In this document: positions 2,566-60,020 of the stretch, one piece after another
How the letters are laid out: every line of letters starts with the position of its first letter
Numbering within the stretch: position 1 is the first letter of the stretch
Assembly: GCA_963707295.1 (NCBI GenBank)
Contig: CAVPPL010000012.1
Coordinates: 488,066 to 552,065 of the forward strand
Reading direction: 5' to 3'
Length of the DNA: 64,000 nt
Source: an uncultured Planctomycetia bacterium
GTDB taxonomy: Bacteria; Planctomycetota; Planctomycetia; Pirellulales; Thermoguttaceae
The notes under the pieces: generated by a model
Database searches by the model: none
What the model was told of the DNA's origin: nothing
What the model saw: only the letters and a program-made list of their open reading frames with translations
Translations under genes and position numbers: made by a program

Positions 2566-2646
2566 GGAGCCATAGATCGCGCCGGCACGATTCTTGTGGT
2601 TATTGCCGATACTTCCTGTATTTGGCGGCTGTCACAGTTTATCTTT

Positions 2647-2700
2647 CGCGCTGGAGTCCCGGCTTTAGCCGCCCGCGCTGGAGTCCCGGCTTTAGCCGGC
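2647..2700. repeat. 27-bp direct tandem repeat, 2 copies (cgcgctggagtcccggctttagccg)
   Basis: Two adjacent near-identical copies are read directly at 2647-2673 and 2674-2700. They overlap the 3' end of the glycosyltransferase fragment. Confidence 0.8.
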
Positions 2701-3360
2701 TGCGTTGCCAAGCACGGCCTGCGTGTCCGGCCGGCGGCTCACGCGGCTGAAGAAGTCGCGATAGAGCGGCGCGAGACGATCGGGATGCCACGCTTGGGCA
2801 CGCTCTCGCGCGGCTCGGCTGGCGCGATCGTATTCCGCCGCGTCGTCCCATAACCGGATAATCGTATCGACCCACGGCGCGACCTCCTCGGCCGTCGGCA
2901 CGTCGCGGGTTTCTGGCGTGTATCGCGCCGGGATGTCGAACAAGAATCCACCAGTCCCCTTGCCCTCCGGGAGAGGGCTAGGGTGAAGGCGTGTTGAGTC
3001 TGGGAGAGGGTTAGGGTGAGGGCTGCCTCCAATCGTCTCCGGCAAGCCGCCACGATTGCTGGCTAGCACCGGAATGCCGTTGGTCATCGCCTCCATCGCC
3101 ACCAGCCCGGCGGATTCGATCAGCGACGGCATCAGAACGAGCTTTGTCACCGAATAGAATTCTCGCGGATCGGGCGATGCGCGCATGAAACGCACGTTCT
3201 TCAATCCGCCGAGATCGATCCCCAGCGCCGGCAAGAAGTCCGCCTTGCCCACCGCTTCCACCACTAAGAGCGGAATATCCGGCCGCCGCCGCGACAATTC
3301 CTCTGCTATCCGCGCGAATACGTAACCGCCTTTCAACGGTGTAGGATTGACGAACGTCAC
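2692..3360 (-). pseudogene. GT-B glycosyltransferase (GT4-like), C-terminal half only, 5'-truncated
   Basis: ORF 2692..3360 shows typical GT4 C-domain motifs (VLMPSLIESAGLVAMEAMTNGIPVLASNRGGLPETIGG...GGFLF). It begins mid-domain (VTFVNPTPLKGG) with no N-terminal Rossmann half. The IS end lies immediately upstream. Confidence 0.7.
2955..3023. repeat. palindromic REP-like element, family 1 (ccctccgggagaggg-tagggtgaRggc), about 1.5 copies inside the glycosyltransferase CDS
   Basis: The hairpin core ccctccgggagaggg plus the gggtgaaggc / gggtgagggc tails. Related copies are at 3367-3397 and 55594-55630. It translates in frame as SPHPNPLPDSTRLHPSPLPEGKGT. Confidence 0.65.
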
Positions 3361-3397: not shown

Positions 3398-5088
3398 CCT
3401 GATAAAAGCTTCTAAGCTGCTGCGCGGGCTGGCGTTGCGCCTCCAGAGGGTCTGGCTTTTGCTTCCCGGAACATAAGTTGGCGTTTGGAGGCGACCGTGT
3501 TTGGTAAGTACGTTGCAATCCATTGGTTCACATCGACAGTCTTGATCCGTTTCAAGCTGGCCGTCACTTCTTCGGGCGTCGTAGGCCGAAGCAATGTGGG
3601 ATAGGCCAACAACAAGCCTGTGAATCCGCTTTTGGAGTGTTGCTTTTCCAGTTGTTTGTAGAGTGCGAAACTGGATTCCAGAATCTCGGTGCTCATCGGC
3701 AAACACTCGTTCGGCCGTAGTTTTCGTTCGTGCTTGCGCAAAAACGCTATCGTAGTCTGGAAGAGCTGCCGGCTCAGGGAATGATGTACAAGAGGGGCGC
3801 CCAGCGCGTGAAACTGCTTCGCCGCCCCGCGAAAGATACCTCGTTGGTTGATGAACGTCAGCGCCGTGGCAATGACCTCTTGACACTCTTGCCACGATTG
3901 GATGCACGGCGCGAAGTCTCGCAGCCACCCCAGCTTTTCTGTCATACGACATTCCTTGATCCCCTCGCGGCTTCGGGATTCGGGATGATTCAAGTGCCAC
4001 AGAATCGCGGAAGCCCAATTCAGCGTCGGCGCCAGATTCATGAAGCGGGCCTTCATCTTGAAACCTGGCGGGAGGAAGTGCGCCAGCTCAGTTTGCTGTA
4101 AAGCGCAACGCATCCCACCGATTTGTTTGACGAACGCTTCATAATCGGCGTCTTGCTTCAATAATCTCTCGAATTGGTTCGCCAGGAAGTGTTTGGGATC
4201 GCGGATCACCAAGGGCTTTTTTCCCGCTTTTCTCAGGTCCTAGGCGGGATCTCGTAACTCCACGGCCCCATCCGACTCGATCGCCCTGGGCATCCCATAA
4301 TGCTCGGCCGTTTCCTGATAGACCTTCGCCACGTCCTCGCATTTCCACGCTTCGCCGGGCCGCACCGCCAGAACCTCCACGTCCCGATGGCGTAGCGGGG
4401 TTCCGCGACGCCGCAATCTGGCCTCAGGAACCCTCAACATCACCAGCACCTTTTCCTTGCCGATTTGATTGGTGTGATCCGTCAGCCAAATTCCGCCGGG
4501 AACTTTTTTCGCGTGGTCCATGCGATCCAAGCCGATCCTCTGCATCCACAGACGAATCGTTTGGTAACGCGGAATCTCTACCGCCACATCGAGCCAGTCG
4601 AATACGACCTCCAGGGTTCGTCGTGTCGGTCGAAGGCCAATCTGGCGTGCAAGATTGACGCACAACGCAATCAGGCCGGCTCCGTATTGAAGACCCCGCG
4701 GCGGCTTTCCCAGCGGCAACGTCACCGGTTGGGGTTGAGCAAGCTGATTTTCCAATTCACACACCCGCTGGCGCAGTTTCATCCTCTCTTGTTCCACTTC
4801 CACCCGCCCCGCCTCGGACTGCGCCAGCTTCGCGCAATTGCTCCAAAGCTTCACGTGCTTCCTTGAACTTCTCTCGCCAACGGGCACGCCCCAGAAAACA
4901 ACTTCTGGCAATGGCGGATAAACGGGACTTGCACTGCGATCCAAACTTCGACCATAATGACACCACTGTTGCGTCCTTCGCTTCTAGGCGTTCGGTCTGG
5001 AATAACTTCACAGAAAGAAGCGCAACAGTTTTTTTCTTTCAAATCAAGTCCAATTGCCGAAATCAAGCAACTTTTTATCAGGCCACCC
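3392..5088 (-). mobile_element. IS element (~1.7 kb) with ~17-bp terminal inverted repeats, family undetermined
   Basis: 3392-3408 gggtggcctgataaaag matches the reverse complement of 5071-5088 (gggtggcctgataaaaag). One long transposase reading frame fills the interior, and its stop (3412-3414) lies 4 nt from the repeat. No flanking direct repeat was found. Confidence 0.75.
3412..5011 (-). CDS. DDE-type transposase, interrupted (one in-frame TAG, one N-terminal frameshift)
   Basis: ORFs 4240..4944 and 3412..4212 are in the same frame, separated only by TAG at 4237-4239 (ELRDPA*DLRKAGKKPLVIRD). The N-terminus probably starts in ORF 4757..5011 (MKLFQTERLE...RARWREKFKEAR), with a frame change near 4800-4860. 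Transposase-like features: IPRYQTIRLWMQRIGL, WLTDHTNQIGKEKVLVML, STEILESSFALYKQLEK. Confidence 0.6.
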
Positions 5089-5181
5089 TACGGGTCCATT
5101 TTTTCCAAGAATTACTTCGCGGCAGCGAATAACCGCGATAGTGCTCAATATCCACTTTCCCCCTTTTCCAGGAGAGAAGCT

Positions 5182-6873
5182 ATGAAGAAGTGTCTATCCA
5201 TGTTCCTTGCCGCGGCCGTAGTGTTTGCCGGGGGCCTGTCGCGGGCCGGCGCCGCGGAAGCGAAACCGATCGCCGCGGTGGCCGTCGCCAGCTACAACGA
5301 CCTCATCGGCGACATCAACTTTGTCGGCGGCCTGGTCGACCGTCCACAGTTGGGCGCCGGGCTGGACGGCCTGGTCACGCTGGTGACGCAGGGCAAAGGC
5401 CTGGCCGGCGTCGATAAGGCGCGGCCCTTCGGGGCGATCGTCCAGGCCAGCGGTGCGGACGACGTGACCGGTTACGTCTTCCTGCCGATCAACGACTTCA
5501 AAGCGGCGCTCGACCTCTTGAAGCTCTACAACAAGGTCGAGGAGGAGGGGGAAGTCTACAAGCTCACGCCCAAGGACGGAAAGCAGGTCAATTTCGTCAA
5601 GCAGCACGACACCTGGGCGTGCTTCTCCGACAAGGCCGAGTCGCTCGCCCACATCGCCGGCGATCCGCTCGCCGTGATCCACGGCATGGAGAAGAATTAC
5701 ATCGTCGCCGGACGGGTCTTCCTGGCCGACGTGCCCGACGCGCTCCGCGAGAAGTTTCTGACGGGGCTCAAAGACGGGATCGAGAAGGAGGCCAACAACA
5801 AGAAGGACGACGAGACCGACGAGCAATTCGCCCAGCGGAAGAAGTTCCTGGAGCAGGTCGAGACCTACCTTGTGCGCGTGGCGGGCGACATGGACCAGCT
5901 CAACTTCGGCTGGGGACTGGACCGCAAGGCGGCGCGGACCTTTGTCGATTTCAGCGGGACCGCCAAGCCGGGCACCGAGACGGCCGCGGAAATGGCCCTC
6001 GCCGCCGAGGCCAAGAGCTACTTCTCCGGCTTCCGCATTCCCGGCGCGGCTGCCCTCTATGCCGTAGCCAGCCCAATTCCTGCGGTCAAGCAAAAGCTTG
6101 CCGAGAGCCTGATCGAACTCGTTCGCAGTCATGCGATGAGCAAAATCGTCGAGCGCGCTCCGGAGAACAAACGCGAAACCGCCAAGGTGGTCGTCGGCGA
6201 TAGCCTCGATCTGTTGACCAAGATGGTCAAGTCGGGCCGCACGGACATGGTGATGACCGGATTGCTCAGCGAAGACTCGGCTACCGGCCTGGGCGCGTTC
6301 TACGTTGCCGACGGCAAGTTGTTCGATAAGATTGTCCACACCATCGTGAAAGCGATCGAGGAGGACAATCCCGCGGTGGGTCAGTTCGTCACGCTCGACG
6401 CGGAAACTGCCAATGGCCTGAACATCCACAAGGTTACGATTCCCATTCCGGAAGGTGCCGAAAACCGTGATAAACTGGTGAAGTTCATCGGCGAGAAGCT
6501 CGACATCGTCGTCGCGGTGGGTGACGAAAACATCTATGTCGCCGCCGGACGCGACGCGGACGCGAAGCTCAAGGCGGCCGTCGCGGCGTCCAAGGAGGCT
6601 GGGGCGAAGTCTGTCGGGCCGCTGAAGGTTTCCTATGCCGCTCAGCCGTTCGCCGGCGCAGTCGCGGCCACAGGCACGGGCCAAGAACAAGCCGCCGGCA
6701 AGATGATGGTCGCCGAACTGAAGAAATCGCCCGGCAAGGATCATATTAGTCTCACTTTGCGGCCGATCGATAACGGTGTGCGGATGCGGTTGGAAATTGA
6801 GCCGGGCCTGTTGCGGCTGGCTGGGCAGTTAATCGTCGGGCGGATGGAAGGCAAGAGCCCGGGGGCAGAATAG
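5182..6873 (+). CDS. hypothetical secreted protein (563 aa)
   Basis: ATG at 5182 is preceded by ccaggagagaagct. MKKCLSMFLAAAVVFAGGLSRAGAAEA is a signal peptide. The long intact ORF has ordinary amino-acid composition, and the antisense ORF 5194..6744 is a G+C shadow. Confidence 0.7.
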   Translation: MKKCLSMFLAAAVVFAGGLSRAGAAEAKPIAAVAVASYNDLIGDINFVGGLVDRPQLGAGLDGLVTLVTQGKGLAGVDKARPFGAIVQASGADDVTGYVFLPINDFKAALDLLKLYNKVEEEGEVYKLTPKDGKQVNFVKQHDTWACFSDKAESLAHIAGDPLAVIHGMEKNYIVAGRVFLADVPDALREKFLTGLKDGIEKEANNKKDDETDEQFAQRKKFLEQVETYLVRVAGDMDQLNFGWGLDRKAARTFVDFSGTAKPGTETAAEMALAAEAKSYFSGFRIPGAAALYAVASPIPAVKQKLAESLIELVRSHAMSKIVERAPENKRETAKVVVGDSLDLLTKMVKSGRTDMVMTGLLSEDSATGLGAFYVADGKLFDKIVHTIVKAIEEDNPAVGQFVTLDAETANGLNIHKVTIPIPEGAENRDKLVKFIGEKLDIVVAVGDENIYVAAGRDADAKLKAAVAASKEAGAKSVGPLKVSYAAQPFAGAVAATGTGQEQAAGKMMVAELKKSPGKDHISLTLRPIDNGVRMRLEIEPGLLRLAGQLIVGRMEGKSPGAE

Positions 6874-7436: not shown

Positions 7437-9746
7437 GTGCAAAAAAGATCCGTATTAGGAGTTGTGTGCGTTGCCGTGGGCATGGTCGCCCTGGCAGAAG
7501 TATCACTCGCATCCGCCCAGCGGCCGGCCATGTTTGAAACCGAAGCCATCGACGCCAAAGTGGCCGCCCTGCTGAAGCGGATGACACTCGCCGCAAAGCT
7601 CGGCCAGTTGACGCAGTTCTCTAACGGCGCGGCGACCGGGCCGGGCGGAGCGAAGGTCGATCAAAAGGAACTCGCCGCGCGGGCGGACTCGGCTCGGTCC
7701 TCAACCTCACCGGGGCACGCGAGTGCAACGAGTTGCAGCGGCAGGCGGTGGAAAAATCGCGGCTGAAAATCCCCATCCTCTTCGGCCTGGACGTGATTCA
7801 CGGGCATCGCACGGTCTATCCGATTCCGCTGGGGCTTTCCGCCGCGTGGGACGCCGAGCTTGCCGAGCGCTGCGCCCGCATGGCCGCAGTGGAGGCGACC
7901 GCCGACGGCATCCGCTGGACATTCTCGCCGATGGTCGATATCGCCCGCGACGCCCGCTGGGGCCGCATCGCCGAAGGCAGCGGCGAGGACCCGTTCCTCG
8001 GCTCGGTGATGGCCGCCGCCTGGGTCCGCGGATATCAGGGCAGCGATTTGTCCGATCCGACGGCGATGCTCGCCTGCGCCAAAGCATTTTGTCGCTTACG
8101 GCGCAGCGGAGGGCGGACGCGACTACAACACGGTCGATATCTCCGAGCGCGTCTTGCGCGACGTTTACCTTCCGCCGTTCAAAGCGGCGCAGGATGCCGG
8201 CGCGGGCACGTTCATGGCCGCGTTCAACAGTCTACAAGGCGTTCCCGCCTCGGCCAACCATCATACGTTGACCGACATCCTGCGGAGCGAATGGGGTTTC
8301 AAGGGTTTTGTCGTCAGCGATTGGGGCTCGATCGGTGAGTTGGTGCAGCACGGCGTCGCGCTGGACGGCCGCGAGGCGGCGCTGAAGGCAATCACCGCCG
8401 GCGTCGATATGGACATGCAGAGCGGGCTATACGACACGGTGCTGCCCGAACTTGTGCAAAACGGGCAGTTGAAGATGGACGTGATCGATCGGGCGGTGAC
8501 GCGCGTGCTGCGGATCAAGTTTGCGCTGGGGCTGTTTGAGCGGCCGTATACGGTCGAAAAAAGTGGTGCGGGCGTCCCGCCTGCTGAAAAGTCGGGCGGA
8601 TCGGCAGCCGGGACGGCCGCGCCACGGGCAGCGGAGCACACGGAACTCGCCCGTCGGGCGGCAGAAGAATCGTTCGTGCTGCTGAAGAATGATGCTGTGA
8701 ATGGCAAGCCCCTGCTGCCGCTGCCAGTCGAACAAAACGATTGCCCTCATCGGCCCACTGGCTGACGATCAGGCGGGGACGCTGGGCGCCGTGGGTGATG
8801 AAGGCCGACGTTAAGGAGGTAGTGACGTTGTGGCAGTCGCTCGATGCGCGGTTAAAGTACCGCCTCCATTACGCCAAAGGTTGCGACACACGCGGCGAAT
8901 CCGAAGCCGGCTTCGCCGAAGCGCTCGCCGCGGCCAATAAGGCCGACGTCGTGCTCATGGCCCTGGGAGAAGCGCCGGACATGAGCGGCGAGGCAGAATC
9001 GCGTGCCCACTTGGACTTGCCCGGCGTACAACTCAAACTGCTCAAGGCGGTCGTCGCCACGGGCAAGCCAGTCGTGCTTATTCTCTTCAGCGGCCGGCCG
9101 CTGGCGATTCCCTGGGAGGCCGAGCACTTGCCGTCGATCCTCGCGGCTTGGTTTCCCGGAGTGCAAGCCGGCCCGGCGCTCGTGCGAACGCTCTACGGCG
9201 ACGCGAATCCATCGGGCAAGCTGACGGCCACGTTCCCGCGGAGCGTCGGGCAGGAACCGCTCTACTACAACCACTTCAACACGGGCCGGCCCGCGCCGGG
9301 CAGCGACCGCTACGTCACCGGCTACATCGACGAGCAAGCCACGCCGCAGTTTCCTTTCGGCTGGGGCCTGTCGTACACGAAGTTCAAGTACTCGCCGACC
9401 GCGATAACCTCGCAGACAGCCAGCGCGGCCGAGTTGAACCGCGACGGCACGATCGTAGTAGAAGCGACCGTCACCAACACGGGCCAGCGCCGGTGCGGAG
9501 GTCGTGCAGCTTTACATCCGCCAGCGCGGCACGAGCGTTGTACGGCCGGTCCGCGAGCTGAAAGGTTTCGAGAAAATCACGCTCGCACCGGGCGAGTCGC
9601 GGCGGGTGAAGTTCACGCTAACGAAGAAGGAGCTTGCTTTCTGGAACATCGACATGCATCACGTCGTCGAGCCGGGCGAATTGACCGTGTGGATCGCACC
9701 GAATTGTCAGGAAGGGCATCCGGCGAGGTTGATGATCGGGCCGTGA
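7437..9746 (+). CDS. bglX: GH3 beta-glucosidase (BglX-like), about 4 frameshifts as written
   Basis: The protein can be followed through ORFs 7437..7766, 7733..8338, 8154..8765, 8741..9781 and 9504..9746. Motifs: signal peptide, KIPILFGLDVIHGH, WGRIAEGSGEDPFLG, GFKGFVVSDWGSI, GEAESRAHLDLPGVQ, PFGWGLSYTKF, VQLYIRQRGTSVVRPVRELKGFEK. Frame changes lie near 7675, 8088, 8745 and 9495. Confidence 0.8.
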
Positions 9747-9754
9747 CGGGTCGT

Positions 9755-10307
9755 CTACCGCGCTGGCCGCTTCTTCTGTGATCGCCGGACCTTCAATTCG
9801 CGCATTTTCCCGGCCAGCACGCGCCGCCTTTCGGCCGTGTCTCGCCTCCAACGGACAGCCACCTCGGTGGAGCGCCGTTCCTTGCCGTCCACCGTGTCGC
9901 GGACCATTTGATAGTGTCGCTTTAAGCGCTCGACGTAGGCCGGGTCATGGAGCATGAGCGCGTTAACCATTGATAGCAACCTCGTAGCGTATTTCGACTG
10001 CGGACTGGTGGGGTTCAGGATCGGTCCTTTCAAATCCTCAGCATCGGCGATCGGCGCCGATTTCAACCAGCGCTCGTAGAACTCGAGGCATTCCCAACCA
10101 TAGGTGATGACGGCCAGCGGTCCGAGCTTCTTTGCGACGATCATCGAGCATGACGCGGCGACAGTCGCAGCCTGGCTCGTCGCAATACAACTCTACCGCG
10201 GCGTAACTGTCGGCCGGCAGCCCGTTGGTCGGCTCCATAAGAATCGCATGGCGGGTTTCGGCTTCCGCCAACTCGGGATAGAAATCGTGAAAAGGCACGA
10301 AGAACAT
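9755..10307 (-). CDS. conserved hypothetical protein (CDEPGCDCRRV motif), one frameshift
   Basis: ORF 10038..10307 (MFFVPFHDFYPELAEAE...LYCDEPGCDCRRVML) continues in ORF 9755..10144 (AKKLGPLAVITYGWECLEFYERWL...). The frame change is near 10140. Confidence 0.5.
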
Positions 10308-10452
10308 GGCGGGTCTCCCTACCGCAAGATGTCTGGATTATCTTTGCCGACAACCACCATTTTACCGGAGACAAAAAGTGCGTCCAGAGGAAAATGAACG
10401 GGCGGAAACTGGTATAATGAGAGGAAACTCGCGCAGGCGGAGATTGCAGGTT

Positions 10453-10803
10453 ATGACTACCGTCGATTTTGAGCCATTGTCCGTCGCCCTGCCGTTGCGG
10501 GAAGATCCGCCGGGCGTATTCCGCGTAGGGCAAAGCCGGGTGCTTTTAGAACTGTTGCTTCGCGCCTTCCAGCGCGGCGAAAGCGCCGAGGGCATCGTCC
10601 GCTCCTATCCGACGCTTCAGCTTGCCGACGTTTATACGGTCATCGGCCGCTACTTGGCGGACCGCGCGCCTTTCGACGACTATTTACGACAGTGCGAAGA
10701 GCAAGCCTTAGCCGTGCGCCATGAAATCGAGGCGACCCAACGGCCGGCGATTGGCAAGGAGGAACTGCTCGCCCGCGCCCGCGCAAAGGGATTGATCCCG
10801 TGA
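10453..10803 (+). CDS. DUF433-like antitoxin-type protein
   Basis: ATG at 10453 within ORF 10306..10803. FRVGQSRVLLELLLRAFQRGESAEGIVRSYPTLQLADVYTVIGRYL matches the DUF433 pattern. Its stop overlaps the next gene's start (GTGA). Confidence 0.7.
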   Translation: MTTVDFEPLSVALPLREDPPGVFRVGQSRVLLELLLRAFQRGESAEGIVRSYPTLQLADVYTVIGRYLADRAPFDDYLRQCEEQALAVRHEIEATQRPAIGKEELLARARAKGLIP

Positions 10804-11150
10804 TCGCGTTCTTGGTTGATCAGAACTTCAACGAACATATCGTCGATGGTTTGAGCCGGCGTGACCCAAGTCTGAGCTTTACGTTCGTGTGCGACGTTGG
10901 CTTGGCAACAGCCCTCGATCCCATTCTTCTCCAATGGGCGGCGTTGCGCGGTTTGATACTCCTGAGCCATGACGCCAAGACCATTCCACCGGCGGCTTAT
11001 GCCCGCGTGGCGGCAGGCCAAGCGATGCCGGGCGTTTTCCTTGTGGATGACCTGATGCCGATTGGACAGGCGATCGAGGAGATATATCTCGCGGTCCACT
11101 GCCTGACTGCCGAGGAATGCAAGGACATCGTAATGTATTTCCCGCTTTGA
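10800..11150 (+). CDS. DUF5615-like (PIN-like) toxin-type protein
   Basis: MIAFLVDQNFNEHIVDGL...LILLSHDAKT is the typical DUF5615 partner of DUF433. It overlaps the upstream gene by 4 bp. Confidence 0.7.
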   Translation: MIAFLVDQNFNEHIVDGLSRRDPSLSFTFVCDVGLATALDPILLQWAALRGLILLSHDAKTIPPAAYARVAAGQAMPGVFLVDDLMPIGQAIEEIYLAVHCLTAEECKDIVMYFPL

Positions 11151-11489
11151 TAGCGGCGATCCGCGCGAGCGACAACTGAAGACTAATTTTCCTCTACAAT
11201 CAGATAAAGGCCATCGTGCTTACCAACCGAACCCAGCGCGGATTCTAGCTTGTCCATTCCATCGCCCTCAAGGACGATGCCAGCGGACCAGCCGCGCGGA
11301 ATTACTTCAATCTTTCGACGGTAAACTTCCACCTCCTTAACGATTAAATGAGTCGATGCAAAAATGCCAAGGTCGATACTCTCGTAGTTTGGGGGTTCAC
11401 ACTTGTATTTGCCCATCGCAGTAAAAACCGAGCCGACGGGGATGTCAAACTCGCACCCGTTCGTGATGACAATGGTGTCATCAATGCGA

Positions 11490-14182
<2,693 letters not shown>

Positions 14183-24305: not shown

Positions 24306-25949
24306 TCAAGCGAACTTCACTCGTCGGGCAGTCAATACCTCTTCGGCAGCACGGAGTCCGTGATAGAACGCTTCTTCCATCAAAGCCACGCCGCTCAAAT
24401 CGGTATGAGCGAAGTGAACGCCGTGAAAAACTTGCGCGGCCTGGCGGCGAGCCTCGCTCCAAATGAAACCTGGCCGCGGACGAATCATTGCATGACCCCA
24501 CCGCATGATATCCAATCGCTGTACAAGCCGTTCTAGTTCCGGATGGGCTCGCCCGAGATCGGTTAATGCTAGCGTCGCACAGTCGTCCCAATTCATGTTC
24601 AATAGCTCCTCTCGCGCCTCCCACGGCGCGTCGCTTGCAAAAGCATGATAATACGTGAGCACGGTTGGGCCGTAGTCCGCGCCGGTCTGATGCGTCGCCA
24701 CCACGTAGCCCAGCGAAGGGCTTTCGTAAAGCACGTTGTCCCATGCCAACGGAAACCCGAGGCCGCCGGGCCGATCGCGAAGGAACAAGTTCGCCACCAT
24801 CCAGGGCGCGTATTGGAATTCCTCGATGTGCTTCGGCGGCGCGCGGCGATAATCGCGGATGACGTTTTTCGCGATAAACTGCGGCGCGGCGAAGATGACC
24901 TGATCGGCGTACAGTCCGCGAACGTGCTCGCCGGAGGCATCGAGCATGACGACATCGGCGCCGTTTTCATGTGGAATGATCTCCGCCACGAGCCAGCCCA
25001 GGCGGACGCGCTGCTTGATCCGCTCGTACAAGTGAGAGACGATGCGGCCGTTGCCTTCGGGCCAGGTGATCAGCGGCTGCGACTTCATGCCGGGCCGGCG
25101 GATTCGCGCGGCAAAGTAGAACACTCCCGCCCAGGCGCTGGTCTGGTCGCACATCGTGCCGTAGTCATCGCGGCAGCAATAATCGACCAGCCACCGCAGT
25201 CGCGGCGAGGTCCAGCCGTGCCGATCGAGCCATTGGCTCATGTTGATCTTGTCCAGCGCGGTCACTTCCGCGTCGTCGGAGCCGGCGGCCACGGGCAGCG
25301 CGAAGGCCCGGCGGCCGCGGCCGTCGCGCCAGCCGGCCCAACGGTCCATTTCGGCCTGGAACGCATGAAGCTGGGCCAGATCGTCGGCCGTCGCGCCGGC
25401 GTAGAGATAAAGCCCTTCGTACCAGCGGCCCTTGTAGAAGACCCGCTCTTGGGGATCGCGGCAGAGGAACTGCTCGGCGACGATCGGCTCTCCCTCGGCG
25501 TCGCGGCCTTCGAGGACGCCCATTTCGTCCAAGAGCGCGACGAGGTCCGCGTTCTCCTTCATTGGCACCGGCACATAATGCGCGGCCCAAGGGAAAGCCG
25601 TGATCTCGGACGTGCCGCTGGTGGACGTTCCGCCCGGCCGCGGTTCCATTTCAATGAGCGTGAAGTCGTGGCAGCCGGCCTTTTGCAGCCGCCAGGCGGC
25701 TGCCAGTCCGGCGATTCCGCCGCCGACGATGACGACACCGCTCGGCTCCCAAGCGTCGTCCGGCGGACTGGGCCGCTCTTTCTTCCAAAGGCGGTGGCCA
25801 AGTTTTTGCGACAGGCCCACGATCCGGCCATCAAACTGCGGCGGCTTGCTCGCGCCACGACAGCCGCCCAGCAGCGCCGGAACGCCGAGCATGGCGGCAA
25901 GCATCTGGCGGCGGTCGAAGGCGGACGCTTTGTTGTGGGAGTCGCTCAT
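24306..25949 (-). CDS. FAD/NAD(P)-binding oxidoreductase (amine-oxidase/desaturase-like) with Tat-lipoprotein-type signal
   Basis: SAFDRRQMLAAMLGVPALLGGC is a twin-arginine motif plus lipobox. VVIVGGGIAGLAAAWRL is a dinucleotide-binding fold. The ORF is intact, and the ATG at 25949 was chosen over upstream alternatives. Confidence 0.75.
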   Translation of the reverse strand: MSDSHNKASAFDRRQMLAAMLGVPALLGGCRGASKPPQFDGRIVGLSQKLGHRLWKKERPSPPDDAWEPSGVVIVGGGIAGLAAAWRLQKAGCHDFTLIEMEPRPGGTSTSGTSEITAFPWAAHYVPVPMKENADLVALLDEMGVLEGRDAEGEPIVAEQFLCRDPQERVFYKGRWYEGLYLYAGATADDLAQLHAFQAEMDRWAGWRDGRGRRAFALPVAAGSDDAEVTALDKINMSQWLDRHGWTSPRLRWLVDYCCRDDYGTMCDQTSAWAGVFYFAARIRRPGMKSQPLITWPEGNGRIVSHLYERIKQRVRLGWLVAEIIPHENGADVVMLDASGEHVRGLYADQVIFAAPQFIAKNVIRDYRRAPPKHIEEFQYAPWMVANLFLRDRPGGLGFPLAWDNVLYESPSLGYVVATHQTGADYGPTVLTYYHAFASDAPWEAREELLNMNWDDCATLALTDLGRAHPELERLVQRLDIMRWGHAMIRPRPGFIWSEARRQAAQVFHGVHFAHTDLSGVALMEEAFYHGLRAAEEVLTARRVKFA

Positions 25950-26182
25950 GGGCTTGTATCTTCTTTTGAGTGTCATGACTTTATCCGCTGACTTCTCGAC
26001 TCGCAATCGGAGGAGATCAGACAGTGTGGCGGCAGGTTACGCAGTCTGCGTAGCGATCCCGATTCATTCGTCTTCCATGCTGGCGGAGGGTTGTTGCCAG
26101 CCTTGGCGTCTCGCCGTGGGCTTTTCGGTCGCGACATTCCGCTCGAAAAAACTTTGCGCAGTGCCAGATTTGGCACTTTTGT

Positions 26183-26227
26183 CACCGGTTTGACGCTGTT
26201 TGGCACCGGTTTGGCGTCGTTTGGCAC
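26183..26227. repeat. 21-nt tandem repeat (caccggtttgRcgYYgtttgg), about 2.1 copies
   Basis: Read directly: caccggtttgacgctgtttgg caccggtttggcgtcgtttgg cac. Another tttggcac lies just upstream at 26168-26176. Confidence 0.6.
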
Positions 26228-26348
26228 GATCGCAAGCTTGGGCGGACCCCCGTTTTTCCGCGGGGAAACTGCATGTGTGGCACGAAATGTCCCACTTTGG
26301 CTCGCTTTTCGCGCGGGCCGACGATCGGGTGCGCAGGCTCGACAAAGT

Positions 26349-26508
26349 CTCGCGCAAAGCGCAAAGCTCGCAAAGGAATTGGGCGCGCAAGGGAACGAAG
26401 CCTCCGACTCGCGTGACAAACGAACGGCTTGCGCGTTGGTGGGTATGTGGTTCATCGCTTCAAACTACTCTTTTCTACCTTTGCGAGCTTTGCGCCTTTG
26501 CGTGCGAC
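26349..26508. repeat. REP family 4: inverted pair of gcaaag-rich arms (ctcgcgcaaagcgcaaagctcgcaaagg / cctttgcgagctttgcgcctttgcgtgcgac)
   Basis: The arms at 26349-26378 and 26478-26508 are mutually complementary. A related pair is at 56172-56321. Confidence 0.6.
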
Positions 26509-26854
26509 ATTTTGCAGCGACGGCCGCTGGCGCACAGGTTGTCGTTTTGGCCGGCATTTTTTCTTCGCGTTTGGGAATACACGGTTTTCGGCTGCATTCT
26601 TGGGGTTTTCCAAGGCAGGATGGGAGTAGGACGGCAGCAGGATGCAAGTAGAACACAAGCAGAACGCGAGTAGGACCGTAATAGGGTGCGAGTAGGAATA
26701 CATCTTGTGGGTTGTCCGAGGGTGGCGTCAGCAACGTGTTGGAACACTAATTACCGCTAATCATCACTAATGGAATGTCCTATCATCGTTAATCAGTGTT
26801 AATTAGCGTTCCCTCCTTTCCGTATATGCTTGTTCGGCGTTGGGGAAAATGCAG

Positions 26855-26965
26855 GAAAACCACGAAATACACGAATCACACGAAAGCCGGACGGAGCCAC
26901 GGATGAGACACGGACGGGACGCGGAAACGATCCGTGTTTGATCTGTGTTCCATCCCTGGCTAAAT
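26855..26965. repeat. REP family 5: cacgaa/cacgga-rich element ending in the hairpin acggatc/gatccgt
   Basis: ccacgaaatacacgaatcacacgaaagccggacggagccacggatgagacacggacgggacgcggaaacgatccgtgtttgatctgtgttcc shows internal short direct repeats. I recognise this as a common intergenic repeat type in Planctomycetota/Verrucomicrobiota (from memory, not searched). Confidence 0.5.
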
Positions 26966-27968: not shown

Positions 27969-28392
27969 TCACTCGTAAATGTCGCCGCTTTTGGCTACTG
28001 GGTCCCAGCGAACCTGAGCCGTCGCATCGACAAGCTGATCCATCCCGAGGATTTCGCTGCCATAGTTGTTGGGTTTGACTCCCACATCGAGACTATTTTT
28101 CGTCTCAGTTCGCGCTAGGCCCGTGGAGGCCAGCACAGTAAAAACAACGGTCAGGCCGGATTTCATGACGAATGCCGGCACCGCCGGTTGTCGCCGACGC
28201 CGAAGCGCCCGTGGCGACGAGATCAAATTGATCGCCAATTTGTTTGGTAACTACGGAAACGGTTGCTCCAGTATCCACAAGCCACTCAACCTTCGCACTG
28301 TTGGGCTTGCCATGATGCGTCCCTTCAGCGCTCCCGTCCTGGAAAGGCCGTGGATCGCTACTGCTTGACGTTGATGCTTTGAGATTCCCCAT
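27969..28392 (-). CDS. retropepsin-like (clan AA) aspartic protease, one frameshift
   Basis: VEWLVDTGATVSVVTKQIGDQFDL contains the DTGA active-site motif (ORF 28105..28392). The C-terminal half continues in ORF 27969..28238 (MKSGLTVVFTV...NNYGSEILGMDQL). The frame change is near 28165. Confidence 0.7.
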
Positions 28393-28404
28393 GCTGCATC
28401 ACGT

Positions 28405-28668
28405 TCAAAAAAGGTCGAAGCCGACCGGTTCAAAGTAGACAATGCCACCTTTTCGACGGGCCTGGTTCAAAACCACTTGTACGGTGACGCCTGCCACAAG
28501 CTGCCCCTTCACATAGCCAACAACTTGGTACCGATAGGCCTCCCGGATATGGTCTTGATTGGCAACAAAAAGCTCCTTTTGATCCAGAAGCTCGGCGCGC
28601 TGGTCGGCACTCATCCGCTCAGCCAGAACCTCGTCATTAAGCCAATTCTGGAAATCCGTGTCGCTCAT
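28405..28668 (-). CDS. hypothetical small protein upstream of the retropepsin gene
   Basis: Intact 87-aa ORF lying 12 nt upstream of the protease gene. A small partner followed by a clan AA protease is a recurring arrangement. Confidence 0.5.
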   Translation of the reverse strand: MSDTDFQNWLNDEVLAERMSADQRAELLDQKELFVANQDHIREAYRYQVVGYVKGQLVAGVTVQVVLNQARRKGGIVYFEPVGFDLF

Positions 28669-28782
28669 TTCCCCTGCCTAACCTGATCGCCTGCCCTCTT
28701 ATTGCTATCACACGCAATCGATGATATTATATCTTCCTCCGCGGCACGGGGCAACACGTTTGCTTTTTGCGTACAAGATGCC

Positions 28783-31165
28783 ATGGCAGCAGATATTTCT
28801 TCGGTTGTGAATGCCTTGCAATCTTCCACCTTGATCCACTCGGTGGCCGGAGAACCCCGGGGGATAGCGTGGTTGATTGGCGACGACCTCTTGGTCACTT
28901 CGGCGGAGTCGGTGCGCCCTGCGCAAATCGGGCGATGAAGTCACGCTAAGTTTTAACCGCGTGGATATCTTCAACGCAATCATCGATGATATCGAGCCGA
29001 GCGGGCTGGACCTGGCAGTCCTTCGCCTTAGGGAAATGCCAGCCAGTCTGGTTCCGCTCCGAACCCACGGGCAGAAGAGATTCGACGGTCCCTATTTGAT
29101 CGGGCAGGTGACAGATTTTGATGACCTTGCACAGCCAATCCTGGATAAATTGAGGGTGCAGGTGCAAGGGTCAGGCCTGCTTCTCTGCAATTGGGACTTG
29201 CAAATTCCCAAATTCAAACTGCCACTGGTTGGTTCCCCCATATTCAACAGCAAGAATCTTGCGATTGGCATGTACTTGGCTGGTGACCGTGTTCTGTCCA
29301 TGCGGGACATTTTGAGCGTGAAGCAGTTGGCTGCTGCCCAGGCGAGACCTCCTCGCACATTGGAAGAGGTTATTGCACCCGTTGCTACGCCTGGCATGGC
29401 GGAAGAGGTTGTTGCACCCGTTCCGCAAGCTTTGGCGTCACCGTTCCACCATCCTTTTGCTGTGTTTAAACGCGTTAACGCAACTGGTCAAGTGGAGATA
29501 ATTCCTTCTGGGAACGCACTAACCGCCGAGGGTTCGCTTCAGTTCGTCTTCGGATTTGGCCAGGCGACGAAGGGAATTCCGTTTGCAGGCAAGGAACCGC
29601 TCCTGACTAAGCCGGCCGACCTACCGTATCCGATCACGCTCCTGGTTGACATTTGGTCGGAAGAGCTAAAATTTCCTGAGACGAACAAGCAATTGACGTT
29701 GGCCGACGGCAGCTCCGAAGCTGAAGTAACCTTTCCGCTGGTTGAATGCGGTGCCTTTGCTGTGGGCAAAGAGCAAGGCAGTGTCTTTGTCTTTGTACGC
29801 CATCCAAGCAAGGATGCGGAAGGAAATCCGGGCACGCACTTGATCGGAGTTTTCCGGGTGTCTGTGGCTCTAAGCGAGCCGGCGCCGATTCAACAATCGA
29901 TTGAGTACGCCTATCTGGACAATCGTTGGTTTCGTTTCGCCAAGGAGGAGCTTACCGCGCCGGCATGCACGATTTATTTCAGATCCCGGGAGGGGCATGT
30001 GCGAGTTTTCGCTTTTTCCCGCGAGGGTTCGCAACGAATGTGGGCGATGCGAGGCATGAGCGTGGAAGCGATCCGTAAGGCCACTTTGGGCGTCTATCGT
30101 GTCGTTACCCAGAGAGCAATGGTTTTTGACGCCGAGCCACCGGCTTATCCAGACCTCACTGACGAGGAGCTTAATAGGCGAAAGTCGGAGTTTGAGCAGG
30201 CGCAACGAGTCGCTGACCGGGACACGGCGAAAGTGCTTGCCGAACATGGCAACCAACTTTTTTCCGATTTGTTGTTCTGTGACGGCCCGGCTCCGCGTGC
30301 GTTTGCCGAACTCCTGAACAAACTGCCGGAGGGGTCCCAGGTCACTATCGCTGCCGATGTCGGTAGCGACCAGGTAATCCTGCCCTGGGGATTTGTTTAC
30401 GATGCCCTTGACGCGGCGGACGTCGACAGAAACAGGTTCTGGGGACGCCGTTTCAAGTTAGCCATCCGTCCGAGCCTGCATCCGCAAACGGTGGCTGCGA
30501 AACCGCGGAACTCCAAGGAACTGGTCATGGGCAGCATCTACGAGTTACCGGAGGCCGACGGCGTCAGCCGCTACGCCTCGGATTTGTTACAGACGAAACG
30601 AATCGCTAGGCTGGAGCCCGTTGAAATAAAAGATGAATGGTTGCCGGGACTGGAGAAGCAGCCGTTTGATTTGCTCCATTTTCTTTGTCACGGACATACT
30701 CAGTTCTCCGACGTGCTTCTGGCCAACGCTATTCAGCACGTCGTACACGGCGGCCGTTTGCTATATGTCAACGTGGAAACGGGTTCCTTCCTGCGCACAC
30801 GTGGGGACATGGCAACGCTCGCTAGGCTGCAAATAAAACTTCGGACCTTGGACAGCGCCTCAATCGTGCTGCTGAGCATGTGCCATTCGGCACAGGTTTC
30901 CAGTTCCGAATCCAGCTTTGTGCTTTACTTTCTGGAGTGCGGAGCCTGCGCCGTGGTCGGCACCGAAGGGCCCAACCCGTTCGTACTTGCCAATGACATG
31001 GACCGACATATCCTCGAACGGTTGGTGTCGACGAATTGTGACTTAAGTACTGCGGTATGGGAGGCACGCAAAACCAAGATCGAGGATAACATTCTCGCAT
31101 TGATTTACACTGTCTACGGTGACGGCCATGCCACGCTGCCGGCGCCGCTCCCAGGGCGTGGCTAG
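28783..31165 (+). CDS. multidomain protease: N-terminal trypsin-fold domain (degenerate triad), central unknown domain, C-terminal CHAT (caspase-like) domain. One frameshift.
   Basis: The N-terminus (ATG at 28783 in ORF 28702..28938) reads GIAWLIGDDLLVTSAESV...GDEVTLSF...GLDLAVLRL...LPLVGSPIFNSKNLAIGMY, which follows the PF13365-like trypsin pattern. The frame changes near 28931 into ORF 28877..31165. The C-terminus FDLLHFLCHGHTQ...IVLLSMCHSAQV...FLECGACAVVGTEGP carries the CHAT His/Cys dyad context. G+C is visibly lower than in the flanks. Confidence 0.75.
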
Positions 31166-31183
31166 CTTGCAAAGGAGACAATC

Positions 31184-31669
31184 ATGGCTCTTGATCAAGA
31201 ACTGGGGCTACAGATGCTGGACTTCGCCAATAAAATGGACGAGGACGCCCTTCTGGCTGAACTTGGGCAACGGGTCGAAACCTTGAAAAAGGAACCCGCC
31301 ACGAAATCGCAACTTTCGACGCTATCGGCCGTCATGCCGCTGGCGCCTCAACCGACGGCAGGCCCATGGCTGGATGCAGTTGTGAATATGGGCAAGACTT
31401 TCCTGAGTCGATTCAACAGGGACCTATACCGCCTGATGTGCGACAAAAGCGATCCGGACAATAAGGAGATTCGCGATGCCTTCGCTACGGGAGAAGTGGC
31501 TGCGTCAACATACGTAGCCGGGTTGCTGGTGTCTACGTTTGCCTGGTTGCCGGCCATTGTGGCGATCGTGGGCGGCCTGATAATTCGCCGCTTCATTAAG
31601 TCGGCTGCTAACGAAACATATGATCAGATCTGCACGACGTGGGGTAAGGAACTCGGTATCGTCAAATAG
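31184..31669 (+). CDS. hypothetical small protein with a C-terminal transmembrane helix (161 aa)
   Basis: ATG lies 19 nt after the CHAT gene stop and is preceded by AAGGAG. A soluble ~110-aa N-terminal part is followed by VAASTYVAGLLVSTFAWLPAIVAIVGGLIIRRFI. No recognisable family. Confidence 0.6.
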   Translation: MALDQELGLQMLDFANKMDEDALLAELGQRVETLKKEPATKSQLSTLSAVMPLAPQPTAGPWLDAVVNMGKTFLSRFNRDLYRLMCDKSDPDNKEIRDAFATGEVAASTYVAGLLVSTFAWLPAIVAIVGGLIIRRFIKSAANETYDQICTTWGKELGIVK

Positions 31670-33998: not shown

Positions 33999-35765
33999 AT
34001 GCAGAAGCTACAAGGAATCGCCGTTTCGCCTGGCGTCGCCATCGGCGAGGCGCTGGTCATGGACAACGAGGGATTTCGCATTCCTCGGCGGTTCGTGGCG
34101 CGCGACGCGGTGGACGACGAGTTGGAGCGGCTGGAAAAGGCCATCGGCGGCCGCGTCGACGGAAATCTCCGGCCACCGCGAGGCCGATTGCCGAGGAGCT
34201 GGGCGAGAAGTACGCCGCCATCTTCGAGGCCCATCTGCAAATGCTCCAGCGACGCTCGGCTGCGGAGCGAGCTGGAAGACATGATCCGCCAGCGGCATTA
34301 CTCGCCCGAGTATGCCGTGAGCCGCATCCTGCGGCGCTACGCCCAGGTCTTCCAGCGGTTGGAAAGCGCGCACCTGGCGGAGCGGGCCAGCGGACATCTT
34401 CGATATCGAGAAGCGGCTGCTGCAGGCACCTGCTGGGCCGCCGCCGCGAAGGGATCGCGCACCTCACGTCGCCGGTGCTCGTGTTGGCCCACAACCTCAC
34501 GCCCAGCGAGACGGCCAATCTCGACCGCAGCTTCGTCCGCGGCTTCGTCACCGAAGTGGGCGGGCCGGGCAGCCATACCGCGATCGTGGCCGAGGCCCTG
34601 GAAATCCCCGCCGTCGTCGGCACCGGCCCGTTCCTGACCGACGTTTCCGGCGGCGAATTGGTGATCATCGACGGCGACAAGGGCCTGGTGATCCTCCAGC
34701 CCGACGAGGAGACGCTGGCCCGCTATCGGCACGAGGTCGAGACAGAACCGCACGGCCGCCGTCCGCCTGGAAGCCCTCCGCGACCTGCCGGCCGAAACGG
34801 CCGACGGCGTGCGCGATCAGCCTCTACGGGCAACATCGAGTTTCCCTACGAGGTCGCGCACTGCGTCGACCGCGGGGCCGACGGCATCGGCCTGTACCGC
34901 ACCGAGTTCCTGTATCTGGGCAGCGAGACCGAGCCCGACCGAGGAGGTCCACTACCAGGCCTATGCGCAGGTCGTCGCGGCGATGGGCAACCGGCCGGTC
35001 ACGATGCGCACGTTCGACCTGGGCGCCGACAAGTTGCCGCACTTGCCGCCGCCCGAGGACGAGCGCAACCCCTGCCTGGGCCTGCGCAGCATCCGCCTGG
35101 CGCTGCGGAACCTGCCGATGTTCCGCACGCAGTTGCGGGCCATGCTTGCGCGCCAGCGTGCTGGGCAACCTGCAGGTCATGTTCCCGCTTGATCTCCACG
35201 TTGCTGGAGCTCGCCAGGCCAAGATGGTGCTGGCCGACGTCATGGAAGATCTCGACGAGCACGGCATCGCCTTCAATCGCGACATGCCGGTGGGCATGAT
35301 GGTCGAGGTGCCCGCGGCGGTGATGATGATCGACCGTTTCGTCGAGGAGGTCGATTTCCTCAGCATCGGCACCAACGACTTGATCCAATACACCCTGGCG
35401 GTCGACCGCAGCAACAAGGACGTCGTCGGCCTGTACAACCCGGCCGATCCGGCCGTGCTGCGGCTGATCGCCATGGCGATCGAGGCCGCCGACAAGAAGC
35501 CGATGCCGATCAACGATGTGCGGGCAGATGAGCGGCAACCCCGTCTATCACCATGCTGCTGCTGGGGATGGGGCTGCGGCACTTCAGCGTCACGCCCGGC
35601 GCGCTGCCGGAGATCAAGAACATTTGCCGTCGCGTGACCATGGCCGAATGCCGGGCGGTCGTGGACCGCGTGACGACCATGGAAAATGCCCGAGACATCA
35701 CGAATTACCTGCGCGAGGAACTGAAGAAGTCGCATCCCAGGGTTGGGAGGCGAAGGATAAACTAA
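33999..35765 (+). CDS. ptsI: phosphoenolpyruvate-protein phosphotransferase (PTS enzyme I), 10 or more frameshifts as written
   Basis: The sequence can be followed across all three frames: [105 protein letters not shown]. It ends at 35765. Confidence 0.85.
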
Positions 35766-57217: not shown

Positions 57218-60020
57218 ATGTCAACTGCAGTTCTCGCGCCCGGTAGCCACACGCCGGACGAAGTGGCCACGAAATACGTCTATAGCTTCGGTCCTTGGGG
57301 GGCTGAAGGCAACCAGAATATGAAGAACAGCCTGGGCGGCAAGGGGGCCAACCTGGCGGAGATGTGCCACCTGAAGCTGCCCGTGCCCGCCGGATTCACC
57401 ATCAGCACCGAGTTCTGCACGGTCTACCTCCAGGAGGGCAAGCAGTTCTCCGAGTCGCTCCAAGCGACGAGGTCGACGACGGCCCTGCGCCAAGACCGAA
57501 GAGGCGATGGGCATGAAGTACGGCGACCCGGAAAACCCCCTGCTTGTTGTCCTGCCGCAGCGGCGCCCGCAAGTCGATGCCCGGCATGATGGAAACCGTC
57601 TTGAACGTCGGCCTCTGCCCGGCGACGATCCCGGGCTGGTGAAGAAGTCGGGCAACGAGCGGTTCGTCTACGACGCCTACCGCCGGCTGATCATGATGTA
57701 CTCCGACGTGGTGATGGAGAAGGCCGAGGACATCGAGCCGGCCGAGGGCAAGGGCATCCGCGTGCAGCTTGAGCACATCATGGCCAAGCTGAAGAAGGCC
57801 AAGAAGGCTACAAGTCCGACACCGACCTGACGGCCGACGACCTGAAGAAGCTCTGCGAGCGAGTTCAAGAAGAAGGTCAAGGAAGTCCTCGGCAACGAGT
57901 TTCCCGGACGATCCGCAAGGAGCAGCTTTGGGGCGCGATCGGCGCGGTGTTCAAGAGCTGGCACGGCACGCCGGGCCGTCTCCTATCGCCAGATCGAGGG
58001 CATTCCCGAGCGAATGGGGCACCGCCTGCAACGTGCAGAGCATGGTCTTCGGCAACATGGGCGACACCTCGGCCACCGGCGTGGCCTTCAGCCGCAACCC
58101 GGCCACCGGCGAGAACAAGTTCTACGGCGAATGGCTCGTCAACGCCCAGGGCGAAGACGTGGTGGCCGGCATCCGCACGCCCAATCCCCTTCAACGAGGC
58201 GACCAAGAACGAGCAGAACAAGCACCTGCCCTCGCTGGAAACCGAGCATGCCGGGCCTGTACAAGCGAACTCGACGACATCCGCACGCAAGCTGGAGCAG
58301 CACTACCACGACATGCAGGACATCGAGTTCACGATCCAGGAAGGCAAGCTCTACATGCTCCAGTGCCGCAACGGCAAGCGGACCGGCACCGCGGCCTTGA
58401 ACATGGCGATGGACATGCTCGCACGAGAGGCTGATCGACGAGCAGACGGCCGTGACGCGCGTCGAGCCGGCCCAGTTGGACGAGCTGCTGCACCCGATCA
58501 TCGACCCGGCCGCCGAGAAGAAGGCCGAGGCGATCGTTTCCGGCCTGCCGGCCGGGCCGGGCGGGGCCTGCGGCAAGATCGTGCTTCACCTCGGCCGAGG
58601 CCGTGGAGTGGGCCAAGCAGGGCGAGAAGGTGATCCTCGTCCGCGAAGAGACCAACCCCGAGGACGTCGAAGGCATGCGTGCGGCCGAGGGCATCCTCAC
58701 CGCCCGCGGCGGCATGACCAGCCACGCGGCCCTGGTGGCCCGCGGCTGGGGCAAGTGCTGCATCGTCGGCGCCGGCGACGCTGAAGATCGACCTCGGCGC
58801 CAAGACGGCTGACGGTCGGGCGAGTGAAGCTCAAGGAAGGCGACGTGATCACGCTCAACGGCACCAAGGGCAAGGTCTACCAGGGCGCCCTGGCGATGAT
58901 CGACGCCACCGAGAACCCGCGCTTCCAGGAGTTCATGAAGATGGTCGACAAGTTCCGCACGATGGGCGTGCGCACCAACGCCGACACGCCCGAGGACGCC
59001 AAGCGTCGCCCGCGAGTTCGGCGCCGAGGGCATCGGCCTGTTCCGCACCGAGCACATGTTCTACGGCAAGGGCTCGGACGAGCCGCTGTTCCTCCTGCGG
59101 AAGATGATCGTCTCGAGCCAAGCACGGTCAGAGGAGCGCCGAAGGCACGGCGCGTGGCAACGAGCTGTTCCCCTTCGTCAAGCGCGACATCAAGGGCACG
59201 ATGGAGGCGATGGACGGCCTGCCGGTCACGATCCGCCTGCTTGGATCCGCCGCTGCACGAGTTCGTGCCGCAGGACCCGAGGCCGAGCAGGCGGAACTGG
59301 CCGCGGCGCTGGGCATCACGGCCGGCCGACGTCAAGAAGCGCGGCGAGGACCTGCACGAGACCAACCCCATGATGGGCCATCGCGGCGTCCGCCTGGGCA
59401 TCACCTATCCCGAAGTGACCGAGATGCAGATCCGGGCGATCTTCGAGGCGGCCGCCGAGCTGATCAAGGCCGGCAAGACGCCAAGCCCGAGATCATGGTG
59501 CCCGGTCACCTGCGACGTGAAGGAACTCGACGTGACCAAGGTGATCGTCGACCGCGTGCAAGCCGGAAGTCGAAGGAGCAGACGGGCGTCGACGTGCACT
59601 ACCTCTACGGCACGATGATCGAGATTCCCCGGGCCTGCCTGCTGGCCGACCGCATGGCCAAGACGGCCGCAGTTCTTCTCCTTCGGCACCAACGACCTGA
59701 CGCAGATGACGCTTCGGCTTCAGCCGCGACGACATCGGCGGCTTCCTGCCCGACTACCTGAAGACAGGACATCCTCGAGGCCGATCCGTTCCAGACGATC
59801 GACCAGGACGGCGTGGGCCAGTTGATCAAGATGGCGGTCGAGCAAGGGCCGCGCCACGCGGCACGACCTGAAGATCGGCATCTGCGGCGAGCAGGGCGGC
59901 GATCCGGCCTCGTCGAGTTCTGCTTCAAGCGCGGGCTGAACTACGTCAGTTGCTCGCCCGTACCGCGTGCCGATCGCCCGGCTGGCCGCGGCCCACGCGG
60001 CGATTAAGGCGAAGAAGTAG
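57218..60020 (+). CDS. ppdK: pyruvate, phosphate dikinase, 10 or more frameshifts as written
   Basis: KYVYSFG...[34 protein letters not shown] is the canonical PPDK N-terminus. Other motifs: [52 protein letters not shown] (phospho-His region), [43 protein letters not shown]. The fragments lie in all three frames and the stop is at 60018-60020. Confidence 0.9.

Follow-up and report, generated by a model that had tools for sequence, protein, structure and literature searches.

A rare four-gene set around a pseudo-trypsin/CHAT protease and a small hydrophobic partner in a planctomycete: a candidate protease–effector module

The DNA considered here, a stretch of 64,000 nucleotides (nt) from an uncultured Planctomycetia bacterium (hereafter the window), had been the subject of a preliminary description that singled out a two-gene operon encoding a trypsin-fold/CHAT protein and a small membrane protein. 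These two genes, C and D, belong to a rare, mobile set of four genes (A, B, C and D), and the unit also includes a retropepsin-like protease, B, and its 87-amino-acid (aa) partner, A. The left flank, formerly regarded as non-coding, is the site of A and B (27969-28668, minus strand). The chances appear about even that the set is a horizontally acquired protease–effector module whose protease would trigger damage to the membrane and so kill the cell. Death effectors under protease control are becoming recognised as a central principle of bacterial immunity, with a parallel in the caspase/gasdermin biology of animals. To these the module would add a new effector family, the helical protein D with its hydrophobic hairpin and without a family or fold relative, and a dead trypsin fold as the exchangeable front end of a CHAT protease. 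Relative to the known kind of protease–effector system, what is new is the unrecognised effector family and the added retropepsin tier.

The linkage of the genes is the most direct evidence. D follows C in every locus with a visible C 3′ flank, at spacings of -4 to +114 nt. In what follows, L numbers denote loci, and P numbers the protein representatives, or their contigs, used in the comparison. The arrangement is found in the window, L001, L002, L003 (also L004/L005/L014), L006, L007 (also L008), L009 (also L010 and L011), L012, L013, L018, L030 and L037, and, judged by gene size, on the P0007 and P0014 contigs. The proteins also diverge together: the pairwise identities of C and D are correlated with r = 0.89 (45 pairs), and those among all four proteins with r of 0.81-0.94, so that the co-conservation of C and D expected at the outset is borne out. 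D is retained after C relatives with unrelated N-domains (L013, L018) or with their own N-terminal transmembrane (TM) helices (P0014; P0020 in L037). Across loci, then, the front end varies, and the protease and its small partner stay the same. The idea that D is a mere membrane anchor of C was rejected, as the C relatives with TM helices of their own keep it.

All four genes recur together in unrelated metagenome assemblies, in four arrangements. The order A>B>C>D, with all genes pointing the same way, occurs in L003-5/L014, L009, L011 and the P0007 contig; A and B are divergent from C and D (<B<A C>D>) in the window and in L007/L008; C>D>A>B is the order in L012, a TARA ocean scaffold; and the two pairs converge (A>B> <D<C) in L018 and L030. 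Because the linkage survives rearrangement, it is strong evidence that the four genes form a functional unit.

Gene C (28783..31165, plus strand) encodes a protein of ~794 aa after repair of one +1 frame switch, and the large trypsin-fold plus CHAT gene that had been predicted does exist. Its architecture is pseudo-trypsin, beta-sandwich, helical insert and CHAT protease. The repaired protein scores 23.5 bits against the Pfam CHAT family (PF12770), just under the cut-off of 24, and its relatives P0008-P0027 score 23-46 bits, with 9 of the 10 scanned exceeding the cut-off. A HMMER scan of 1.84 billion representatives recovered 705 relatives, some 25-30 of which match from residue ~220 to the C-terminus. 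The AlphaFold model of C (pLDDT 82.5, pTM 0.76) divides into an N-terminal beta domain, a disordered interdomain linker (residues 188-217, 29342..29431, pLDDT <50), an all-beta middle domain common to the core family (residues 222-413, 29444..30019, strands with pLDDT >90), long helices (428-514) and an alpha/beta domain, the CHAT or caspase-fold domain (520-780, 30338..31120). The best Foldseek matches are Csx29 (E 2e-10) and separase (E 1e-9), both with a probability of 1.00 over 425-540 columns. H637-G638 (motif HF.CHG, FLCHG in the window; His637 at 30689-30691) and C701 (LSMC.SAQ; 30881-30883) show conservation of at least 90% across an alignment of 66 sequences and do not vary among close homologues. 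The model thus gives the CHAT domain a caspase-like alpha/beta fold with an intact His/Cys pair, the latter as originally read from the DNA. A search of PDB sequences with the C profile found nothing, and the sole PADLOC match of C is to BovA, over the 36 residues around the catalytic Cys (693-728, E 0.0043).

The front end of C is of a different character. The N-domain (residues 16-185, 28828..29335) is matched by Foldseek to HtrA, MucD, the inactive S1C domain of RsgI9, FAM111A and thrombin-type proteases, with E from 2e-4 to 4e-3. The window protein reaches only E 0.053 on Trypsin_2, and two of six relatives reach 5e-9. The first barrel (16-83) is confidently modelled, and residues 96-145, the region expected to form the second barrel, are disordered in the model (pLDDT ~32). 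Among the eight members with a trypsin-fold N-domain the catalytic His is replaced in seven (by E in the window, where the position reads TSAESV), L007 being the sole keeper, and the conserved Ser is found in none. The degenerate Ser motif is [PG]G[ATLMS][PAM], with GSP in the window alone (VGSPIF), and the Asp of the fold is kept in six of the eight. The loss of the His and the degeneration of the Ser motif suspected from the single sequence are therefore general, and the predicted trypsin fold of C is, to judge from these motifs, catalytically dead across the clade. The C family has several N-terminal modules that can replace one another, and this domain is one of them.

Three smaller observations concern C and its relatives. 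The linker motif EE[VI]IAP of C also occurs in P0001 and P0022, and in the window the linker contains an imperfect 39-nt tandem duplication (29351-29422, 82% identity) that doubles EEV(I/V)APV (EEVIAPV/EEVVAPV). P0016 (1101 aa), a C-family relative, has an N-terminal GMC oxidoreductase/FAD-binding region ahead of its CHAT core, which is an unusual sensor fusion or else a fusion produced by gene calling. P0022 (585 aa) matches C only to about residue 454 and continues in unrelated Arg/Pro-rich sequence, its contig being probably frameshifted too.

Gene D (31184..31669, plus strand) encodes 161 aa and starts 18 nt, not 19 as first counted, after the TAG of C (31163-65). Its AAGGAG ribosome-binding site (31172..31177) lies 6 nt upstream of the ATG, in line with the earlier reading. 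The model of D, built from 13 sequences (pLDDT 70, pTM 0.61), is all-helical with seven helices. An acidic N-terminal part is helical over residues 3-36, and a disordered Pro-rich linker (38-60) ends in a conserved AGP, LAGP in most homologues. Further on, two hydrophobic helices (104-119 and 123-139; 31493-31600) form a hairpin with an invariant WLP turn between them, placed by both the model and hydropathy. D had been described as tail-anchored by one C-terminal TM helix. A single hydrophobic segment is indeed present (Kyte-Doolittle 19-residue peak 2.25, residues 111-129), but ~25 residues follow it and it is modelled as a helix-turn-helix hairpin. Invariant residues include A59, C86, D90, D92, G103, F119, P123, R136 and C150, and G60 is nearly invariant. 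All 11 homologues examined have an acidic segment ahead of the AGP (-2 to -8) and are neutral to basic in the remainder.

D is represented by 13 clusters among 5.8 billion protein clusters, mostly from planctomycete-like, soil, peat and marine metagenomes, and it is because the family is so rare that the module has been missed by current defence catalogues. Against Pfam-A, the only hit with E up to 1 is FeoB_associated (0.28), and NCBIfam, PADLOC and a PDB profile search gave no matches, in accord with the earlier view that the protein lies outside housekeeping families. Foldseek comparison of the model with the PDB and BFVD returned noise, namely mixed globin and Bcl-2 helical-bundle hits with E >1 and TM ~0.2, and a Bcl-2 or colicin relationship is not claimed. 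An identity of A or D with CATASP or EACC1 was likewise set aside, since Pfam-A, which presumably holds an EACC1 model, gave matches to neither. D is a previously unrecognised, non-housekeeping family without a family or fold relative.

Gene B (27969..28392, minus strand) encodes a retropepsin-like aspartic protease of ~139 aa. The DTGA (D40-T41-G42-A43) and ILGMDQ motifs are invariant and are preceded by a conserved 35-aa N-terminal extension (MGNL...RPFQxGSxEGT). The family gag-asp_proteas (PF13975) matches all five B members, with a best E of 1.5e-5 over profile positions 6-90 of 92; the window protein itself falls below the curated cut-offs (25.7 bits against 28.2 for PF13975, 16 bits against 58 for TIGR02281), and B also weakly matches ApRick. 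In L033 (537-1427; also L032 and L031) two B domains are fused in tandem in a single 297-aa open reading frame (ORF), a natural pseudo-dimer resembling a two-lobe pepsin. This fusion is indirect backing for a putative homodimer of B with one shared active site. Gene A (28405..28668, minus strand), directly upstream of B, matches no family in Pfam, NCBIfam, PADLOC or the PDB, and for all four proteins NCBIfam and PADLOC gave no usable match, the BovA hit of C aside.

A precedes B in 30 of 30 loci holding both. With B as the starting point, a scan recovered 23 metagenome loci, and in these A and B are always paired, with C and D adjacent in only part of them. In L015/L016 the pair accompanies a canonical CHAT protein and a metallophosphoesterase (MPE) gene, and in L016 it lies between the two. 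In L024 a Peptidase_C14 caspase-domain protein (4160-6709) ends exactly at the start of A; the same locus has a large downstream protein (11141-14098) that looks SIR2-like by eye (ILATTNYDRL). In L019 the pair is followed by a 1163-aa fusion of Cpn60/GroEL (residues 1-529) to a distant C core (7930-11418, profile E 5.7e-14) that keeps the Cys motif as GCD, and then by a weak metallo-beta-lactamase (MBL)-fold gene (11387-12520). That a retropepsin-like protease and its partner turn up next to four distinct caspase-fold protease modules is a hint of an initiator tier.

From the observed domain identities, linkage and co-variation we infer a sequence of events that extends to cleavage, membrane action of D, a trigger and a role in defence. 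C would be the executioner, with a predicted active CHAT protease, and its exchangeable N-module, here the dead trypsin fold, would be the sensor or regulatory part. D would be a latent effector consisting of the acidic two-helix N-part, the flexible Pro-rich linker and a helical body carrying the hydrophobic hairpin. The trigger would probably be stress from phage or another invader; it would activate C, which would then cut D in or near linker 38-60. The freed C-terminal body of D could then insert into or oligomerise in the inner membrane, leading to cell death or arrest. A and B would be an upstream regulatory pair, B as a dimeric retropepsin-like protease and A as its inhibitor, substrate or sensor partner, and their probable role would be to license the caspase-fold protease, perhaps through a cut in the disordered linker 188-217 of C.

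The C-D pair resembles published systems, as had been noted from its likeness to proteases encoded beside their substrates. Its logic matches that of known protease–effector modules in both adjacency and co-evolution (PMC12642450, PMC7159879). In the work of Evans et al. 2025, MBL and alpha/beta-hydrolase partners are zymogens and Pepco and EACC1 are pore-formers, each of them is activated when cut at a specific site, and the sensors to which the proteases are fused are of many kinds; MPE and CATASP are listed among the protease-associated partners (PMC12642450). As MBL and MPE proteins, published as protease-gated or protease-associated effectors (PMC12642450), hold the corresponding position in related loci, D appears to occupy the effector slot.

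The closest parallel is EACC1-caspase (Kaur et al. 2020, PMC7159879), in which, as in C-D, a small non-enzymatic protein with a hydrophobic or TM segment adjoins a caspase-superfamily protease and the pair is constant while the fused protease domains vary. The small EACC1 and Pepco proteins turn into pore-formers once cut by the adjacent proteases; for EACC1, cleavage strips an autoinhibitory N-part and the remainder permeabilises membranes (PMC12642450), and the same is proposed for D. The GroEL fusion of L019 also recalls published EACC1-DnaK chaperone fusions. Unlike EACC1, which is alpha+beta and ~13 kDa, D is all-alpha, has 153-161 aa, lacks an EACC1 match in Pfam and lies 3′ rather than 5′ of its protease. 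C differs in having a C-terminal CHAT domain behind a beta-sandwich, and the set has two further proteins, the retropepsin-like B and the 87-aa A.

Type III-E Craspase offers the best structural match of C, the TPR-CHAT protein Csx29, which cleaves the adjacent gene product Csx30, as is proposed for C and D. The module differs in having neither a TPR domain nor Cas7-11, there is no CRISPR-like repeat array in 25.9-33 kb of the window, and Csx30, a soluble regulator of ~560 aa, is unrelated to D. In bacterial gasdermins, as suggested for C-D, a protease gene adjoins a latent membrane disrupter that is freed by cutting off an inhibitory part. That part is C-terminal in gasdermin and would be N-terminal in D, which, unlike the gasdermin beta-fold, is small and helical and has no match in Pfam, PADLOC or the PDB. 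Borvo (BovA), a single-gene CHAT defence system, has the CHAT domain in common with C over the 36-residue match and has no partner genes. In the type III-B SAVED-CHAT/PCaspase cascade (bioRxiv 10.1101/2023.06.23.546230) several co-encoded proteases also act in series, but on a cyclic oligoadenylate signal sensed by a SAVED domain, which the module lacks, and with no aspartic protease. B itself resembles the retropepsin-like APRc/ApRick of Rickettsia and TIGR02281 of clan AA in its DTGA, its single-lobe size and its ILGxD-type motif; the matches to these are weak (E 0.01-0.6), and B is cytoplasmic, has a unique conserved N-extension and is always preceded by A. A search of the literature turned up no description of a retropepsin-like protease in a protease–effector system.

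Several points count against a membrane-damaging defence module. D is similar to no known pore-former and its model, with a pLDDT of 70 from 13 sequences, is of medium confidence. A complex of C with D, and a cleavage site in D, are so far proposals. The module has no defence annotation in PADLOC, NCBIfam or PHROG-type resources, apart from the 36-residue BovA hit at E 0.004. Housekeeping genes flank the module in the window, and the defence-island context is thin: one lineage has AbiE nearby and another a conjugation cluster. A and B stand beside ordinary neighbours in at least five loci, the link to C-D being frequent and not obligatory, and they could be an independent mobile pair. Lastly, two of the four module genes, B and C, are frameshifted in this assembly.

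The frameshifts raise the question of whether the module in this genome is a decaying pseudogene remnant from which nothing functional is made. The first frame of C is opened by the ATG at 28783 and meets a stop at 28936-38, and the second frame is open over 28877-31165. Profile matches place the switch at ~28922-28926 and the codons confine it to 28918-28933, beside short CCC, AAA and GGG runs. Five full-length homologues run straight across the junction in the alignment, so the 48 upstream codons are part of the gene. The two ORFs of B (28105-28392 and 27969-28238, with one frameshift near 28168-28172) cover profile positions 1-75 and 74-139. The repaired C is absent from 5.8 billion database proteins in which A and D of this contig are present, which suggests that the depositor annotation has no intact call for C. 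Housekeeping genes of the window are broken at least as often. A tblastn search with E. coli PtsI as query found ptsI in four frame pieces (34193-35720) and a second PEP-utilising enzyme gene (~58600-59714) in at least two frames, and jumps in the phase of GC3, the G+C content of third codon positions, agree with these breaks. The assembly seems to be rich in single-base indels, or else both these genes are pseudogenes. Two indels within the 3.7-kb module are no higher a frequency than that in the housekeeping genes and, as those genes are also frameshifted, the shift in C is no proof of decay; as a sign of decay it was discarded as uninformative. Apart from the single shift, the reading frame of C stays open for 762 codons, and none of its conserved motifs is disrupted. 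We regard decay of the module in this genome as unlikely.

A different role for D has also to be weighed. It could be a membrane-bound pseudosubstrate inhibitor or adaptor of C, in the manner of securin, so that released C would itself be the effector and break down proteins of the host or phage, a role suggested for single-gene CHAT systems such as Borvo and for effector-less caspases. Separase and Csx29, to which C is structurally closest, are both governed by bound partner proteins, the disordered and conserved linker of D could fill an active-site cleft, and effector-less caspase-like defence proteins do exist (PMC12642450); the weak BovA match points the same way. The MBL-like gene that follows the C-like protease of L019, at the position D holds elsewhere, argues for an effector at this place, and the hydrophobic hairpin and acidic prodomain-like N-part of D are better suited to an autoinhibited membrane effector than to an inhibitor that is soluble. 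We regard D as inhibitor as improbable.

The protease–effector module with D as its membrane effector can also be drawn out into a full three-tier cascade, a version that is rather doubtful. Here B, restrained by A, would initiate and license caspase-fold executioners, among them C and the CHAT or C14 proteins found with MBL or metallophosphoesterase effectors, and C would free D as a helical pore-former that inserts its hairpin in a colicin- or Bcl-2-like manner. If true, A-B would be a portable ‘initiator cassette’ for several protease–effector modules, and with B an aspartic protease would be assigned a place in bacterial immune signalling for the first time.

Least probable, and to our mind very unlikely, is that the module is a proteolytic signalling switch, with D as a membrane-tethered regulator that frees its N-terminal helices as Csx30 and CalpT do, or an addiction or stabilisation cassette of mobile elements. 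In its favour, CHAT- and Lon-type defence proteases are known to cut tethered regulators (PMC12642450, PMC11506125), conjugation genes surround the module in L003-L005, and the order of A before B resembles a toxin–antitoxin layout. Against it, the N-part of D has only ~37 residues in two acidic helices without a DNA-binding or sigma-factor-binding signature, and the loci do not have in common a gene for a sigma factor or another regulator beside the module.

Acquisition of the protease–effector module by horizontal transfer is suggested by composition and context. The islet is AT-richer than its surroundings, as first noticed by eye (G+C 0.55 against 0.61 for the whole window), and GC3 is 0.53-0.63 in the module and 0.69-0.78 in neighbouring genes. 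The composition of the islet is foreign, and acquisition of the module is part of the reading that has about even chances. In soil metagenomes (L003/L004/L005/L014) the module sits between VirB4/TraC-like genes and the TrbL, CagX and TrbI genes of a conjugation (type IV secretion) cluster. In L009 (5195-6960) and L010 (3164-4929) an AbiEi/AbiEii pair lies ~1 kb downstream, followed by DUF2201, NUDIX and DUF1653 genes. With such neighbours the module fits mobile accessory cargo. Searches with D against plasmids and phages by tblastn, and of IMG/VR with D and B profiles, gave no matches. Flanking direct repeats were considered as attachment sites, but the only pairs found (16-31 nt, 71-88% identity) occur in inconsistent order and were treated as chance. 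The closest homologue in a named genome, from one genome scan, is in a Gemmataceae metagenome-assembled genome (L002), where a gene just downstream of D (2197-2880, minus strand) encodes, judged by eye, a NucA-like non-specific nuclease with a DRGH motif.

In the window, A and C diverge from a 114-nt intergenic region (28669..28782) with overlapping promoter-like sites facing both ways, TTGCTA-17-TATTAT on the plus strand (28702-28730) and TTGCCC-17-TATAAT on the minus strand (28754-28726), each a consensus match only. On the left the module is flanked by an FAD oxidoreductase gene (24306-26006, minus strand) and on the right by hpf-ptsN-hpr-ptsI from 32648 on. Scans of the flanks for tRNA genes and Rfam elements were negative. 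These flanks had been called repeat-filled, which was an overstatement. Within ~2 kb that holds no convincing ORF, the repeats are confined to 26178-26950 (26.18-26.95 kb) and are short, degenerate, low-copy tandem repeats (periods of 7-22 nt, 2-5 copies); the same ~2 kb also has a 21-nt inverted repeat at 26356/26478.

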